Shown here in pieces: positions 9,272-15,221 of a DNA stretch of 49,248 bases. The stretch covers positions 1 through 49,248 of IMG/VR virus record IMGVR_UViG_3300037440_000199; one strand, 5' to 3'. The stretch is from a virus (Duplodnaviria; Caudoviricetes). The notes beneath the pieces are model-generated. The model saw only the letters and a program-made list of their open reading frames with translations, made no database searches and was not told the origin of the DNA. Every line of letters begins with the position of its first letter. The stretch's first letter is position 1. A program made the position numbers and the translations under genes.

Positions 9272-9436
9272 CTACCGCGGGTCCAACCAAGGACCGTGCA
9301 TGTCGTTGCGCGCCACCGCCAAACCCGCGCGGATCAACTCCGCCGCCGGAACGATGTTTTCCGCGTGAATGTTTGCGATACCGTGCCGCTGCGCTTCACG
9401 CAGCAAATCCGCGGCTTCTTCGCTCAAATCACTCAC
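9272..9436 (-). CDS. small hypothetical protein (54 aa, not in ORF track)
   Basis: GTG overlapping the SLT stop; MSDLSEEAADLLREAQRHG...WLDPR. Confidence 0.5.
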   Translation of the reverse strand: MSDLSEEAADLLREAQRHGIANIHAENIVPAAELIRAGLAVARNDMHGPWLDPR

Positions 9437-10125
9437 GCCAGCACCAAATTCGGCGACGCGTTCGCGAAAATCGACACCATGTCGTTGCGTTTCGGCTTTT
9501 TTCCGCCCTCGGGGGGCTTTTCGGCCGCTTGTGGCTGTTGCGCGGACATCAGTTGCGCCAGCATGGCGCCGAGCCCGTTTTGGGTAGGATCCACCCCAGT
9601 TTGGGTAGGAGGAGACGCTTGTATTCCCGCCGGCGGGACGGCGCCTCCTCCGGATGCCGGGGAGCTACCGCCGGCAAACTTCTTCGTCCACAAATTAGCG
9701 AAATCGCCGGCCGTCATGCCGGGTTGGCCGGCGTTGAGGGCGATCGCCTTGTCGCCGACGACCGACGCGGCTGGTGCGCTGGCGTTCCGGAGCAGATTTA
9801 TCGCTCCACCCGCCCCTTGCTGGTGCATGAGATACATCTCTCCAGGAGAAGGATCGCGGCCGAGCGCCGTTCGGAAGTGGTTCCGGTTGTCAACAGTGAA
9901 ACGAGCCATCGCATCGGTGTTGGCAATTGCGTCGGACTTTGGGGCGCCTCTGCCATACTGGTTCCACGTAGGGTCGATGAACTGAAACAGCCCGCCGGCG
10001 CTCGAACTAGGGTTCTTGGCGGCCGGGTTCATGCCTGATTCGATCTGCGCCGACCGCATCAGATAATCGGCGGGGAGCCCGTACTGCGCGGCGGCCTGTT
10101 GGATGATGTCGGCGACTGTCGGCAT
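9433..10125 (-). CDS. lytic transglycosylase (SLT-like), probably virion-associated
   Basis: IESGMNPAAKNPSSSAGGLFQF catalytic motif; YLMHQQGAGGA. Confidence 0.85.
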   Translation of the reverse strand: MPTVADIIQQAAAQYGLPADYLMRSAQIESGMNPAAKNPSSSAGGLFQFIDPTWNQYGRGAPKSDAIANTDAMARFTVDNRNHFRTALGRDPSPGEMYLMHQQGAGGAINLLRNASAPAASVVGDKAIALNAGQPGMTAGDFANLWTKKFAGGSSPASGGGAVPPAGIQASPPTQTGVDPTQNGLGAMLAQLMSAQQPQAAEKPPEGGKKPKRNDMVSIFANASPNLVLA

Positions 10126-10326
10126 ACGGTGTTATACGCCAATTGCGGATTGCGTACAACTGTCTGGCGGTAGAGGCTGCACAGGCGGCCAGAACGTGTT
10201 CCCGTAAGTACCCACGACCACGATCCCGTCGTTGGTCGAAGCGTGCTGCGGGAGATTGCTCGTCAGGAAGCGGATAAGCCGGGTACTGGCGATAAAGAGT
10301 CTAGGGTGCCCCACGGTTTATCTCTG

Positions 10327-10476
10327 AAAAAGAACGGCCCCGACGCCCAAGGTGCTACGCATTACAAACAGGAGGGTGGCGTCGGGGCCGTAAGTCAGGC
10401 TGTTGAGACAGAACCGGCAGCCCACGAAGCCACCGGGTAGAGAGGATCGGGTGAACTCTACCAAAAGCCCCGACCC
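10327..10476 (-). ncRNA. putative structured ncRNA, unit 3
   Basis: follows TTGACA-18-TACATT; ends in a perfect 14-bp stem (10334-10347/10378-10391) plus UCUUUUU. Confidence 0.6.
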
Positions 10477-10482
10477 CGTGGG

Positions 10483-10512
10483 AATGTAGGATACTGAGGC
10501 GGGTGTTGTCAA
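10483..10512 (-). promoter_or_regulatory. sigma70-like promoter, unit 3
   Basis: TTGACA-18-TACATT; -35 centred in the palindrome GGGTGTTG-T-CAACACCC (10501-10517). Confidence 0.7.
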
Positions 10513-10565
10513 CACCCTTACACGAGCGGAGCGGATTGAAACTGATTCGCTGTGCTCAGTGAAAG

Positions 10566-10730
10566 AAAAGACCGGGGCGGCAAGTGAACCGCTGAGCGAC
10601 AGTACCGCCCCGGCCTCCCGGGTGGGCGTGCCGATTTATCAGTTCGGTGCCGCCCGGACTTACTGAGGGCGGATGCCCGCTTTCACCCTGTTAAGCGATC
10701 CAGTCGCGCAGAGCCGATCCCGCAGTTTGC
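10566..10730 (-). ncRNA. putative structured ncRNA, unit 2
   Basis: follows TTGACA-18-TACAAA; two hairpins with complementary loops; ends in CCGGGGCGG...CCGCCCCGG-UCUUUU. Confidence 0.65.
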
Positions 10731-10766
10731 GTCGGATTTGTAGGCAGATGTCGAGGGGGTTGTCAA
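10731..10766 (-). promoter_or_regulatory. sigma70-like promoter, unit 2
   Basis: TTGACA-18-TACAAA-tccgac; near-identical to the unit 1 promoter. Confidence 0.7.
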
Positions 10767-10791
10767 CACCCTTATACACCCGGAACGGATT

Positions 10792-10896
10792 AAAAAGACC
10801 GGGGCGGCAAGTGAACCGCTGAGCGACAGTACCGCCCCGGCCAACGGTCATCCCGGAGTGCCGGGAGCCGCATATATGCGTCGATGCGCGACGCGC
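10792..10896 (-). ncRNA. putative structured ncRNA, unit 1
   Basis: hairpins GCGUCG/CGACGC and UCCCGG/CCGGGA, then the shared 50-nt terminal hairpin and U-tract. Confidence 0.6.
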
Positions 10897-10932
10897 GTCG
10901 GATTTGTAGGCAGATGTCGGGGGGATTGTCAA
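10897..10932 (-). promoter_or_regulatory. sigma70-like promoter, unit 1
   Basis: TTGACA-18-TACAAA-tccgac; -35 overlaps the MTase stop codon. Confidence 0.7.
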
Positions 10933-11903
10933 GCGCAGGCCGCTATGAACTCCGCGGCGACTTGCGGGACGATCGCGTTGCCGTAGGCGCGCAGGCATCC
11001 CACTCGGCCGGGAATCCCATGAGCCAGCGGGAATGTGCCGGATTCAACTGGCCGGGCTTTTCCGTCGGTGCAGAGGAGCCAGTCGGCGTCTGACCAGAAA
11101 CTAGCGCCACCGTCTTGCGGCCCGAGTCCGTATTCCCCGCCTCGTTGTAGCCTTTCTGCGCGGGCGTACCGGCCATTGGCGTCGGCCAGCTCGCTAACGA
11201 CGCCGCTCCCGGCAACCTGTCCGTTCCCTGCGCTGGTCCACCTTTCGGGCCGTCCTGCGTGCACGGCGTCGACCACGCTGCCAACTGTGCGCTCTGCCCG
11301 AGCGTCAGCCCGAAACCGTTGTTCCCGTGCTTCGCCGCGGCTTTCGCCCGACGCTCCATCCACGTCGTGTCGGTCAGGTTGCCCGCCGATGCGTCCGGCG
11401 TCGGCCACGAACCACAATCGCTGTCTGATGTGCGGCGCGCCGACGCTACAAGCTGGCAATACGGCCGCCCCGCAGGCGTAGCCTTCTGCCTCCAGGCCAG
11501 CGAAAACAGCGTCGAGCCAGCCTTGCTTAATCGCGCCGCTAACCTGCTCGCCAAAGACCTTTGCAGGCTTGCGCTCGCGGATGAGACTGAACCAGTCGGG
11601 CCACAAATGGCGATCGTCCGCGAAGCCTTTTCGCTGACCAGCGGCGCTGAAGGGCTGGCAGGGGCAGCTCCCGGTCCAGACGGGTCGGTCGTCGGGCCAT
11701 CCAGCCAGGCGTAGCGCGTAGCTCCACCCGCCGATTCCGGCGAAGAAGTGATGCTGCGTGTAGGCGGTGAGGTCGTCAGGCTGAACGTCCTTGACGCTGC
11801 GGGTGTCTACGTCGCCAGGGGCGATGAGGTTTTCGGCGATCAGGTTTTTCAGCCATTGGGCCGCGTAGGGGTCGATCTCGTTGTAGTACGCCCGGGGCTG
11901 CAT
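10929..11903 (-). CDS. DNA cytosine-5 methyltransferase (alpha-type subunit)
   Basis: FFAGIGG (motif I), [12 protein letters not shown] (IV), GEQV (VI), [11 protein letters not shown] (VIII), [10 protein letters not shown] (X). Confidence 0.9.
10943..11554 (-). CDS. nested alternative-frame ORF, probable MTase beta-type subunit
   Basis: W(P/S)TP repeats and [16 protein letters not shown] (motif IX-like), entirely within the MTase gene. Confidence 0.65.
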
Positions 11904-12098: not shown

Positions 12099-12587
12099 TT
12101 AGTCTAGCCAAGACAAAGGCTTAGCCTCGTCGTCTTGGGCGTTTTGAGCGTTAACCGGGGTTGCGCGGCCGGCGAGCTCTGATTCAAGCTTGGCCACGAG
12201 CTCGTGCAGCTCGTGCGTCGTGCGTTCGGTAAGCGGCTTCTCGATAGCGCTCTCCGCGCCTTCAGCCTTTGGCGGTACCCATCCGGCGAGGCCTATCAGA
12301 TCCCTGGCGCAGTTGCGCCGAACGGCCGGCGGCACCTTTTCATCACGGGCCAGCGACAACAGCACGCTGTACGCGACGGGCGCCGCTTCAACGACCAAGC
12401 GCCGCGTTATCTCCACCCGCACGGCCGCGGCGACGTGCGGGAGCCGAATCGCGGCCGAAACCGATTCTTTATGGGAGTAGCCCGCGCGTTCGCCGGCGAG
12501 TCCCTGCGGCACTCCGTTCACTAACTCGTGAACTAACGCCCTCTGCTGATCGGTGAGGCTCGCCAAGTGTGGCGCCGGCAGACCCAC
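12099..12587 (-). CDS. terS: terminase small subunit-like protein
   Basis: N-terminal HTH LTDQQRALV...AGERAGYS...IRLPHVAAAV typical of TerS. Confidence 0.65.
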   Translation of the reverse strand: MGLPAPHLASLTDQQRALVHELVNGVPQGLAGERAGYSHKESVSAAIRLPHVAAAVRVEITRRLVVEAAPVAYSVLLSLARDEKVPPAVRRNCARDLIGLAGWVPPKAEGAESAIEKPLTERTTHELHELVAKLESELAGRATPVNAQNAQDDEAKPLSWLD

Positions 12588-12686: not shown

Positions 12687-12923
12687 ATGACACACGTGAT
12701 TCTCTGCGACGGCCAAATCTTCCGTATGGAGCGTTGGGGCAACGGCTTGTCATACGAGCTGACCCACAAGCCCTCCGGAATGGCAGCGTACATGCGGGGT
12801 GAATGCGCCGCGCGATTCGACGACGATCTGCGCGCATGTGAAGACAATTTCCCCGACAACACGACCGAGCAAAACGCCGCGTGGCTTTGGGATCAATGCG
12901 AATATAGCTCGATCGCGGTCTAG
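12687..12923 (+). CDS. early hypothetical protein
   Basis: 78 aa from the ATG after the shared GAAGGGACAAGACG leader. Confidence 0.7.
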   Translation: MTHVILCDGQIFRMERWGNGLSYELTHKPSGMAAYMRGECAARFDDDLRACEDNFPDNTTEQNAAWLWDQCEYSSIAV

Positions 12924-12983
12924 CCACGCGCCTTCCTCGCTGAATACTGAGACGAATCACCGCAGACATGAAGGGACAAGACG

Positions 12984-13280
12984 ATGTCATTGGTTCAAGA
13001 CGCCCGCAACGCCCATGCCCTGCACGGCTTCAAAGCTTGGCAACTTTACCAGACCTACAAAACTTGGTGGAGCGGCCCAGTCCCGCGCGGTCCTGGGATG
13101 GACACAATCACCAGATTAGCCCTCCGACTCTACTACGGCCGGACACCAGCGGAGGCTTTGGCCCGCGAGTACCTCTACCGTTGGGGCTTGGCCATCAAGC
13201 CAGCCGATCAGTGCATTGGCGCCGCCACCCGCAACCCTTGCGTTTCCATATTCGGCGCACCGCACACAATCGGAATGTGA
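12984..13280 (+). CDS. early hypothetical protein
   Basis: 98 aa, starts at the end of repeat B. Confidence 0.7.
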   Translation: MSLVQDARNAHALHGFKAWQLYQTYKTWWSGPVPRGPGMDTITRLALRLYYGRTPAEALAREYLYRWGLAIKPADQCIGAATRNPCVSIFGAPHTIGM

Positions 13281-13327
13281 AGCCGCGCGCCTTCCTTGTG
13301 GAAAACTGAGACAGATAGGAGCAGACA

Positions 13328-13597
13328 GTGGTCAAATTCAACCCGTTCGGCAGGGTCAATTGCCAATACGGCGCTCCCATGGGCCGCCACGGAAACGACG
13401 CGTCGACATGGGACGCCACCAGCAAACTATACGCCCGCCACGGTGGCGGCGATGGTTACTATGACCGCGGCGGCGCCTATTGGGGCCACAGCGACATATA
13501 CGCCGTGTGGGCACGTGGCGGCGGATGGTGCTGCTATGTTGATGGCGTTTCATCCCCCGAATCGGCAATCCGCAAAGTGCAACGAACCAACGCCTAA
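13328..13597 (+). CDS. early hypothetical protein (YGAPMGR...YYDRGGAYWG)
   Basis: 89 aa, GTG at the end of repeat A with AGGAG RBS. Confidence 0.72.
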   Translation: MVKFNPFGRVNCQYGAPMGRHGNDASTWDATSKLYARHGGGDGYYDRGGAYWGHSDIYAVWARGGGWCCYVDGVSSPESAIRKVQRTNA

Positions 13598-13661
13598 AGC
13601 CGCGCGCACCTTCCTTGTTGAATATTGAGACAAATCACCGCAGACACGAAGGGACAAGACG

Positions 13662-13850
13662 ATGCATCTCACCGACATGACCTACGACCAAGCGAATCAC
13701 ATGCTGCGCACCGGCCGCGCGTCAGAAACCGCCGCCCGTGAGTATGTCGCCACATGGAACGCCCACAAGGTCTCTACACAAGCCACCCTGATCGAGGTCA
13801 GGGACAACGGCTTCCGTCACGTCGAAATTATCGTTGTAGACGCGCCCTGA
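13662..13850 (+). CDS. early hypothetical protein
   Basis: 62 aa, starts at the end of repeat B. Confidence 0.68.
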   Translation: MHLTDMTYDQANHMLRTGRASETAAREYVATWNAHKVSTQATLIEVRDNGFRHVEIIVVDAP

Positions 13851-13900
13851 CCTAGCCGCGCGCCTTCCTTGTGGAAAACTGAGACAGATAGGAGCAGACA

Positions 13901-14113
13901 GTGGCTAAACAATCTGACAAGCTTCGCGACATGGAAACGCCGATGGTGCTCGGTTACGAACTCGACCGCAAAACACTCCTGCCCCTTCGCCGCACGATCG
14001 ACACAAGCCGCCCCAGAGATTACGGCGCCGACCCAATCGGCAATGGCAAATTCCGCATGGTCCCCAGCGGCGACATTGTGGATTTCGCCGAACGCAACCG
14101 CAGACTCGCCTAA
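13901..14113 (+). CDS. early hypothetical protein
   Basis: 70 aa, GTG at the end of repeat A. Confidence 0.68.
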   Translation: MAKQSDKLRDMETPMVLGYELDRKTLLPLRRTIDTSRPRDYGADPIGNGKFRMVPSGDIVDFAERNRRLA

Positions 14114-14115
14114 CC

Positions 14116-14187
14116 GGCGAAACGGCGCTCCAGTCAAGAGAGCGCCGTCCGGCCGGGATGGCTTCCGGCCGCTGATGAGCCAAGCCA
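14116..14187 (+). ncRNA. type II hammerhead ribozyme
   Basis: GGC-GAAA-stem III (CGGCGCTC/GAGCGCCG)-TC^-stem I (CGGCCGGGA/TTCCGGCCG)-CTGATGA-GCC; predicted cleavage after C14149; loop TGGCT can pair with 3' AGCCA. Confidence 0.9.
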
Positions 14188-14221
14188 AAACGTTGAAAAC
14201 TGAGACAGAATGGAGACTGAA

Positions 14222-14536
14222 ATGGCTACGCGCGAATTTGAACACTATGACGGCTGCAGCCGCAACGACCCTGACAACTGCGGCGCCTGCGCACTGACTG
14301 ACACTCGGCAGAACCGCCCGAACTATTCATCTTGGCCGCTTGTCTACATGTCCAACCGCCGCGCCATCCCGGCTACGTGGAAAGCCGCTTTCTTCGAGGA
14401 GCTGGCGCGCACCGATAACCTCCTTTACCGGGACAACTTGGTCGCGCACGTCGTCAAGTATGGCGCGCGGTTTTCCGACGGTACGACGGCGGTCGAGCGG
14501 AACGGCTTGGTCATGCATGGGCCGGAAAAATGCTAA
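14222..14536 (+). CDS. early hypothetical protein, Cys/His-rich N-terminus
   Basis: HYDGC...NCGAC; GGAG RBS; directly downstream of the hammerhead. Confidence 0.68.
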   Translation: MATREFEHYDGCSRNDPDNCGACALTDTRQNRPNYSSWPLVYMSNRRAIPATWKAAFFEELARTDNLLYRDNLVAHVVKYGARFSDGTTAVERNGLVMHGPEKC

Positions 14537-14616
14537 CCCTCCTCTCCGCCCTCTTACGCCTCCTGCTGATGGCCGCCGTCATGGCCACATGGGTTGCGTA
14601 TGCCGCCAACGCGTGA
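14530..14616 (+). CDS. 28-aa hydrophobic peptide
   Basis: MLTLLSALLRLLLMAAVMATWVAYAANA; fills the gap between two ORFs. Confidence 0.4.
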   Translation: MLTLLSALLRLLLMAAVMATWVAYAANA

Positions 14617-14639
14617 AACTGAGACAGATGGAGACAGAC

Positions 14640-14999
14640 ATGGACGGCTTCCGATTCTATGCCGACTTACCCGGCACGACCACACGACCCGACACCTACG
14701 GCATATCACCCGGCCCGTACCACGAAAAGCCGGTGCTGCCGAAAAGCAGCACGGTCGCGCGCATACGCGCCTTCGCGGACAGCGGGGAACACCTGAACGT
14801 TGCGGCGGTCCTGTTAGGTCGCGAGCACACAAACGACGACTACACACAGGAAGCGATAGTAGCGACATTCAGCCATGCCGACTCCGGTACCTCGCTCGGT
14901 TCCGTGTCGCGCGAGTATCTGCGGAAGTGCCGGCGCATCCCTGAGTCACTAGCTCGCCGGCTGCACCCGCAGATGTTCGCCCGTCTTGACGCAAACTGA
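14640..14999 (+). CDS. early hypothetical protein
   Basis: 119 aa from MDGFRFYADL; GGAG RBS after the TGAGAC motif. Confidence 0.7.
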   Translation: MDGFRFYADLPGTTTRPDTYGISPGPYHEKPVLPKSSTVARIRAFADSGEHLNVAAVLLGREHTNDDYTQEAIVATFSHADSGTSLGSVSREYLRKCRRIPESLARRLHPQMFARLDAN

Positions 15000-15008
15000 G
15001 ACACCACA

Positions 15009-15212
15009 ATGACCACAATCGCAATCGCAATCAACGGCACCGTCCGCTTGCGTGGCCACTACGACCCCACGACCCAAGCCGCTCAATTGGCCGCCGAGCT
15101 CGATCGAGCCTTGCCGACCCTCCGCCAACAAGGGAGGGTCGCCATCTGGGCCGAAGCCGCCGACGGCATCGCCCATCTGGTCCACCCTTGCGCCTTCAAT
15201 GTCGGAAAGTGA
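15009..15212 (+). CDS. early hypothetical protein
   Basis: 67 aa between two motif copies. Confidence 0.6.
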   Translation: MTTIAIAINGTVRLRGHYDPTTQAAQLAAELDRALPTLRQQGRVAIWAEAADGIAHLVHPCAFNVGK

Positions 15213-15221
15213 GGCAAAGCC

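Follow-up and report, generated by a model that had tools for sequence, protein, structure and literature searches.

The window analysed here, 49,248 bases long, comprises an entire virus record and represents a phage that was called temperate. Its genes include those for a terminase, a DNA polymerase, an integrase, a repressor-like protein and the major head proteins. The large terminase subunit matches PHROG 38, and the terminase of this phage is of the two-subunit type. Relatives of the large subunit were present in seven genome records, and since four of these are titled as alphaproteobacteria, the host of the phage is presumably an alphaproteobacterium. The subject of this work is a small three-way-junction element located inside an 803-nt non-coding gap. 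On the left the gap is bordered by a transglycosylase-like gene (9433..10125, minus strand; PHROG 4067, E 6e-24) and on the right by a DNA methyltransferase gene (10929..11903, minus strand; PHROG 363, E 1.5e-83). A second frame overlapping the latter, 10943-11554 on the minus strand, also matches methyltransferase PHROGs (E 1.5e-25). The gap lies downstream of a gene for a small terminase subunit-like protein (12099..12587, minus strand), which shares 65% identity with P0003 (called phage terminase small subunit at its source) and served us as the synteny landmark. The closest relatives are P0006, whose large terminase is 85% identical and which comes from a 50-kb contig, and P0002 and P0003, with small terminases 65-66% identical. 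Across 10586-10822, DNA contigs from one sequencing run, probably the one from which the window was derived, show not a single differing letter.

An earlier note had read the element on the minus strand, at 10620-10688, as a transcribed 'unit 2' forming a three-way junction with complementary loops. All helices named there pair as written: the outer GGGU/ACCC, GGGC/GCCC, and two hairpins, one of 6 bp that closes an 11-nt loop and one of 4 bp that closes a 9-nt loop. Between the loop segments 10639-10643 and 10662-10666, Watson-Crick complementarity is exact over 5 bp (UCAGU/ACUGA). The same stems can be read on the plus strand as a core junction at 10624..10678. Herein, P1 is formed by 10624-10629 and 10673-10678, P2 by 10630-10634 and 10644-10648, and P3 by 10650-10655 and 10667-10672, with a single unpaired G (10649) after P2. 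The junction strands are thus 0, 1 and 0 nt long, and the linker between the two hairpins is this one G on the plus strand and CA, 2 nt, on the minus strand. The P2 loop (10635..10643, 9 nt) carries UCAGU at its 3' end (10639-10643), and the P3 loop (10656..10666, 11 nt) begins with GGA and carries ACUGA at its 3' end (10662-10666). Two pairs of the plus junction are G-U, as the earlier note had remarked in a caveat, and at these junction flanks the minus strand offers A-C. Such G-U pairs point to the plus strand, which is also the strand that folds better and has the loop geometry of the RNA family described below.

Folding of both strands gave a divided answer. For the isolated plus core (57 nt, 10623-10679) the junction is the minimum-energy fold at -26.8 kcal/mol (z -2.52; 1 of 200 shuffles as good), but when flanks are added a competing fold is lower by 3.7-4.2 kcal/mol. 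The minus-strand junction falls short of the minimum even in the 69-mer (10620..10688), where it reaches -22.9 against a minimum of -24.4 kcal/mol, i.e. 1.5 kcal/mol above; this 69-mer is no stabler than its shuffles (z -1.03; 30/200 as good), and within the whole stretch from promoter-like site to terminator-like hairpin the difference grows to 7.5 kcal/mol. As the isolated 5-bp loop-loop duplex is worth -3.7 kcal/mol, pairing of the loops could tip the balance on the plus strand, and could hardly do so on the minus strand.

How readily such a fold arises by chance was estimated by shuffling the 803-nt gap with its dinucleotides preserved. In 337 of 15,175 shuffles (2.2%) one strand or the other gave a tight junction having five or more loop-loop pairs, which makes the element unusual, yet not beyond chance by itself. 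The real gap yields one such junction under the descriptor, on the plus strand only, the minus reading failing it. Pairing over 5 bp between two loops of such size occurs in about 3% of shuffles when the loop ends are set one base off. A stricter descriptor, one that did not recover the window's own element, was run over 1.24 Mb of related phage DNA and returned 26 rows; four of these are two members of the family discussed below, each on both strands, and the other 22 (18 distinct) look like chance, which amounts to about 0.7 chance-like folds per 49 kb. The exact loop-pair pattern had 13 matches in viral contigs, none of them flanked by comparable stems, and nothing similar to the element was found at the seven loci of transglycosylase relatives. 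Such numbers, together with the insignificant family-model scores given below, are what one would expect if the hairpins were ordinary GC-rich parts of an expression cassette whose loops match by accident and whose likeness to the family is a coincidence, a reading we regard as unlikely for reasons to which we return.

The element matches no known RNA. Rfam gave no match over it at E<=1 for the whole window or at E<=10 for either 10100-10960 or the cut-out element, in agreement with the view of the earlier note that purine riboswitches, the SRP Alu domain and phi29 pRNA do not account for it. The purine riboswitch aptamer is a three-way junction of two hairpins joined loop to loop, with a long conserved J2/3. 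The element shares the junction and the two loop-joined hairpins; however, its P2-P3 strand has only 1 nt (plus) or 2 nt (minus), and it is flanked by a terminator-like hairpin and promoter-like sites instead of standing in the leader of a purine-related gene, the nearest genes being the transglycosylase and the methyltransferase; the window shows no gene that it would control. Since junction strands measure only 0-3 nt across the whole comparison, neither the element nor the family has room for a ligand pocket. The SRP Alu domain is built of two adjacent hairpins with a loop-loop helix on the scale of 5 bp, a third closing stem, a UGU U-turn and an attached S domain. Two adjacent hairpins, a 5-bp loop match and a closing stem are found here as well, whereas the linker is G or CA, the UGU U-turn is missing, no S domain lies nearby and Rfam reports no SRP RNA anywhere in the window. 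The antisense RNAs C4 of phage P1 and CI of P4 are small, three-armed and cut from longer transcripts, in which their loops have separate complementary target sites; unlike in these, the two loops of the family covary with each other.

Two groups of phage RNAs deserve closer comparison. The protomers of phi29 pRNA are joined head to tail through four base pairs (PMC7357161), and the element and its family similarly present two stem-loops with short complementary segments; they differ in having 5-7 loop-loop pairs whose sequence varies, in the terminase-type packaging genes of the window and in the occurrence of family members outside packaging modules as well. GOLLD (RF02032) and ROOL have covarying kissing loops, and one ROOL kissing loop first read as tertiary proved to be quaternary (10.1101/2024.12.08.627333). 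Like the family, they are structured RNAs encoded by phages near tRNA genes, and one family member lies in the very tRNA array that holds a GOLLD gene; unlike it, they span hundreds of nucleotides and many domains, and the GOLLD model matches neither the element nor the family members.

Several other observations concern RNAs elsewhere in the phage. Hammerhead junctions carry CUGANGA and GAAA. A hammerhead at the element was rejected, as its CUGAUAA sits in a hairpin loop and the only Rfam hammerhead of the window is at 14115-14190 (plus strand), a type II ribozyme scoring 50.1 bits, above the gathering score, which stands between short early genes and before a repeated gene-start motif. RNase P RNA, suggested by two short motifs, was rejected too: RF00010 (bacterial type A) and RF02357 (type T) gave no matches at E<=10, while the same models had matches in 11 and 8 of 14 control genomes, respectively. 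At 12918-15216 on the plus strand, a repeated leader of 37-56 nt with AAAACTGAGACA precedes several short genes (families D1, D2, D4 and D7); it shares ACTGA with a kissing segment, and its match to the first loop is at most 6 bp.

The minus strand of the gap has a distinct architecture. It carries three TTGACA sites (10932, 10766 and 10512) and, as repeat D10, a 50-nt hairpin with a U tract behind it in two identical copies (10566..10615 and 10793-10842). The element lies between the second TTGACA site and the first of these terminator-like copies. Promoter-like site 1 (10898..10932) precedes a short hairpin unit that ends in the second terminator copy. Site 2 (10732..10767) has its TTGACA at 10766-10761 and a CTACA-type second box, which we take to be the alphaproteobacterial promoter form. 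Site 3 (10483..10513), with a 10/12 consensus match, precedes unit 3, a set of hairpins favoured on the minus strand at 10332-10482 or, by a second delimitation, 10320-10482; the end of unit 3 resembles alphaproteobacterial small RNAs of the mmgR/suhB type, with a C-rich loop and weak Rfam scores (E 0.95-7). The promoter scan did not list site 2, nor did the terminator scan list the 50-nt hairpin, which folds to -32.2 kcal/mol on the minus strand, with four G-U pairs, against -24.4 kcal/mol on the plus strand. A palindrome, GTTGWCAAC, which contains the TTGACA box, occurs six times in the window against 0.39 expected (9886, 10505, 10759, 17335, 18168 and 32470); sites 2 and 3 both have their -35 box within a copy, a copy also stands upstream of the repressor-like gene, and the palindrome is probably an operator.

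It is conceivable, then, that the working molecule is the minus transcript of about 165 nt running from promoter-like site 2 to the terminator-like hairpin, an early small RNA under repressor control with a kissing-loop core. We consider this possible, though doubtful. The promoter-like site and the hairpin do bracket the element with no credible gene between them, and the palindrome covers the -35 box. Against it speaks the energy of the junction in the full transcript given above, in which, moreover, the pairing probability of the first hairpin is near 0 if the kiss is left out, as do the A-C pairs flanking the junction and the failure of the minus reading under the descriptor. The assignment of the element to a minus-strand transcript in the earlier note is therefore doubtful: it has real support in the promoter-terminator cassette, but the strand that folds better and has the loop geometry of the family is the other one.

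Other parts of the gap favour the plus strand. Three long hairpins at 10162..10325, with G-U pairs on the plus strand, fold better on it by 6-11 kcal/mol and might be the 5' part of a plus transcript; they begin just after a mirror-like promoter region (10132-10160) and have no Rfam match. A hairpin at 10515..10562, which comes shortly before the terminator copy and the junction, folds to -22.0 on the plus against -11.6 kcal/mol on the minus strand. The gap is therefore a mosaic, in which these two regions and the element fold better on the plus strand, and unit 3 and the terminator on the minus strand. Such an arrangement fits a non-coding plus transcript overlapped by short minus cassettes. 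A convincing promoter for the plus strand was looked for and not found.

Related phages were compared as well. An alignment of 44 large terminases led to a collection of 80 viral and 7 genome loci. When 90 sources were searched with a descriptor free of sequence, L021 and L042 turned out to have the same element, among 26 rows in all. Patterns and a model made from three members then added L111, L226, L271, L272 (identical to L279) and L275, so that the family now consists of seven distinct phage or prophage sequences in eight aligned rows. Each is a single tight three-way junction of 55-80 nt, and members left out of the building of model R1 score 47-61 bits with it. In the nested stems, for an alignment fitted to the model, 97.8% of 138 cells are paired, both sides change in 9 of the 20 pairs, and the covariation score was reached in none of 500 shuffles. 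The loop-loop helix takes no part in the model's score and pairs in 35 of 36 cells, with four of six pairs changing on both sides and again 0/500 shuffles reaching the score; slid alignments pair in at most 58% of cells. L275, although gapped in these columns, shows UCAUCA/UGAUGA. The helix comprises 5-7 pairs of varying sequence, with its segments at the 3' side of both loops. The members further share an invariant block that includes a bulged A, 12 bases without variation at the 5' end and, in six of the seven, a hairpin ending 0-1 nt before UCC. Overall, the family is well supported by comparative sequence evidence as real and as having covarying kissing loops, and it stands on firmer ground than the copy in the window. 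It also lends indirect support to the three-way junction with loop-loop pairing proposed by the earlier note, being made of RNAs of the same build in related phages.

Members of the family are found in varied contexts. L021, L042 and L271 occupy the same gap behind a small-terminase-like gene (L042 recognised through tblastn, L021 and L271 by eye), the RNA lying on the strand of that gene. Four members adjoin tRNA genes, and four of the seven are outside the packaging module. L272 lies 15 nt behind tRNA-Lys, L111 and L226 also lie behind tRNAs, all three on the tRNA strand, and L275 is inside an array of 17 tRNAs, directly before tRNA-Gly and 290 nt from GOLLD. The GOLLD RNA itself (L275:2375-2841, minus strand) scores 205 bits, and the array belongs to a provirus of 129 kb. 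Other contexts are behind an rtcB-like gene, named by eye, and before a start codon. In all four members with tRNA genes the family strand is that of the neighbouring tRNAs. The strand corresponding to it folds lower in six of six members tested, by 0.3-4.9 kcal/mol, and a kissing pair that alternates between A-U and G-U works on this strand only, while G-U counts in the nested folds favour the opposite strand in five of the six. Such variety of context is easier to reconcile with a free RNA than with a cis element; it also argues against a riboswitch, and would favour an RNA that, like the surrounding tRNAs, is excised from a longer precursor.

The family is patchy in its distribution. A search of 50 virus records met one known member, with nothing new in the 49 others. 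Samples of genomes gave 4 of 151 (two kept), 1 of 27, 1 of 401 by pattern and 1 of 151; further samples gave 1 of 151 (apparently the same sample as the one with four), 0 of 151 and two weak matches in 63. Pattern scans returned mostly chance matches: three members among six matches, the same three among 36, five members among six, and, in metagenomes, one member among at least 119 matches listed. With the gap or a family member as query, similarity searching retrieved no phage records and one match of 23 nt, and among plasmids 11 partial matches, none covering 80% of the query. L142, L124, L277, L273, L274, L316 and L317 were dropped from the family as weak or coding. L045 is not counted as a member either, since short motifs common to the family occur there in another order: at L045:5400-5680 (plus strand) the same gap holds a promoter and, behind it, a multi-way junction RNA with reordered short motifs like those of the family and of the window. 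L299 is doubtful; both loops occur in hairpins within a structured non-coding stretch, and the model gives no match. This stretch (L299:1150-1520, plus strand) is an array of hairpins behind a gene, at -180.8 kcal/mol over 370 nt, and may hold a divergent kissing-loop junction. The gap behind the small-terminase gene is, in many of the relatives listed (L024-L109), occupied by a promoter followed by hairpins with C-rich loops, and it looks like a recurring slot for small RNAs.

Does the copy in the window belong to this family? The models give little help. R1 assigns it 8.4 bits (E 4.7, rank 16 of 31), R2 lists it nowhere among 15 matches at E<=5, and the cut-out element scores 4.0 bits on the plus and 4.4 bits on the minus strand, values that do not separate the strands. 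It keeps seven of the 12 invariant 5' bases, an invariance that is partly a product of the search, most members having been found with patterns or models requiring those bases. The plus strand does have the build of the family: junction strands of 0, 1 and 0 nt, five loop-loop pairs formed by the 3' portions of the two loops, a first loop of 9 nt beginning with UUU, and a second loop beginning with GGA and having U, invariant in the family, at positions 1 and 4 of the hexamer. This second-loop pattern, drawn up after the window had been seen, was carried by only seven of the junctions obtained from the 15,175 gap shuffles. Directly before its UCC, which precedes P1, stands a hairpin, here the reverse of the terminator-like one, just as in the family. 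Against the full second-loop consensus of the family, GA-N(1-2)-U-R-R-U, the plus strand has UACU, with one mismatch. The minus strand has the motif, but out of register with its own kiss; it also resembles the family in that its outer stem contains a bulged A and its second loop UGAU. Its kissing segments occupy the 5' part of each loop, opposite to the arrangement in the family. On the other hand, the plus strand of the window is opposite to the small-terminase gene, while the syntenic members L021, L042 and L271 follow that gene's strand, which, like the model's failure to score the minus reading any worse, favours the minus transcript. As for a form intermediate between the window and the family, a scan using the loops only gave 28 matches, which included two known members, one doubtful and no clear intermediate.

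Taking these points together, we think that the element is probably kin to the kissing-loop family, and, given that the fold is real, the plus strand is somewhat favoured as the working one. Against accident speaks its place, the very gap in which three relatives hold a covarying RNA of the same build, and so do the several loop features that it has in common with them.

Covariation of the loops cannot separate pairing within one molecule from pairing between molecules; the ROOL kissing loop once taken for tertiary proved quaternary (10.1101/2024.12.08.627333). The loops might thus join molecules head to tail into rings or cages, as in phi29 pRNA or GOLLD and ROOL, making the element a minimal self-assembling phage RNA. 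The 0-2 nt between the hairpins may hinder pairing within one molecule, and the neighbourhood of GOLLD in one member and of a small-terminase-like gene in three others agrees with such a role. However, bulges in the P3 stems of the family could supply the bend that an intramolecular kiss needs, four of seven members are outside the packaging module, and a two-subunit terminase is distinct from the phi29-type motor. We hold rings to be rather improbable. At its boldest the idea would be that of a class not yet described, very small phage RNAs with intermolecular kissing loops, the smallest natural self-assembling ring next to pRNA, residing in tRNA arrays and behind the terminase genes of alphaproteobacterial phages and here shut off by its own antisense cassette; put in this form it is a long shot.

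One might also suppose that the family is a new class of small self-cleaving ribozymes that process phage tRNA or non-coding transcripts, the kiss organising the active site as it does in hammerheads. Varied contexts, adjacency to tRNA genes, the invariant block with its bulged A and the type II hammerhead elsewhere in the phage would all suit such an activity, but no known ribozyme core is present, the RNA has no fixed side relative to the tRNA, 5' and 3' placements both occurring, and the window copy is without five of the 12 invariant 5' bases. This scenario seems to us very improbable.

The explanation we prefer, tentatively and at less than even confidence, is that the element is a diverged plus-strand relative of the family. 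A longer non-coding transcript over the plus strand of the gap would be cut to release a compact, stable RNA. Its two loops would pair within one molecule and lock the junction. Once released, this RNA might work in trans on a host RNA-binding factor, as its decoy or scaffold, a role that we propose from the genomic context. The promoter-terminator cassette on the minus strand would then make an antisense RNA that silences the plus RNA early in infection.

Literature searches, based mostly on listings, found no description of the kissing-loop family, and Rfam has no match for its members. It could be among the 8,495 candidate RNAs that a survey drew from IMG/VR (PMC10690425); the motif and the contig numbers tried had no match in seven of the supplementary files of that survey.

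Overall, the fold in the window is likely real, if modestly significant, and it led to a well-supported, uncatalogued family of which the window copy is likely a distant relative, its strand being uncertain. L021, L042, L271, L272 or L275 would be better first objects for tests than the copy that drew our attention. Phage tRNA islands carry structured RNAs, the large ones of which self-assemble through kissing loops. A family of 55-80 nt with a covarying kiss is small enough for direct tests and may thus offer a tractable entry to the role of such RNAs.
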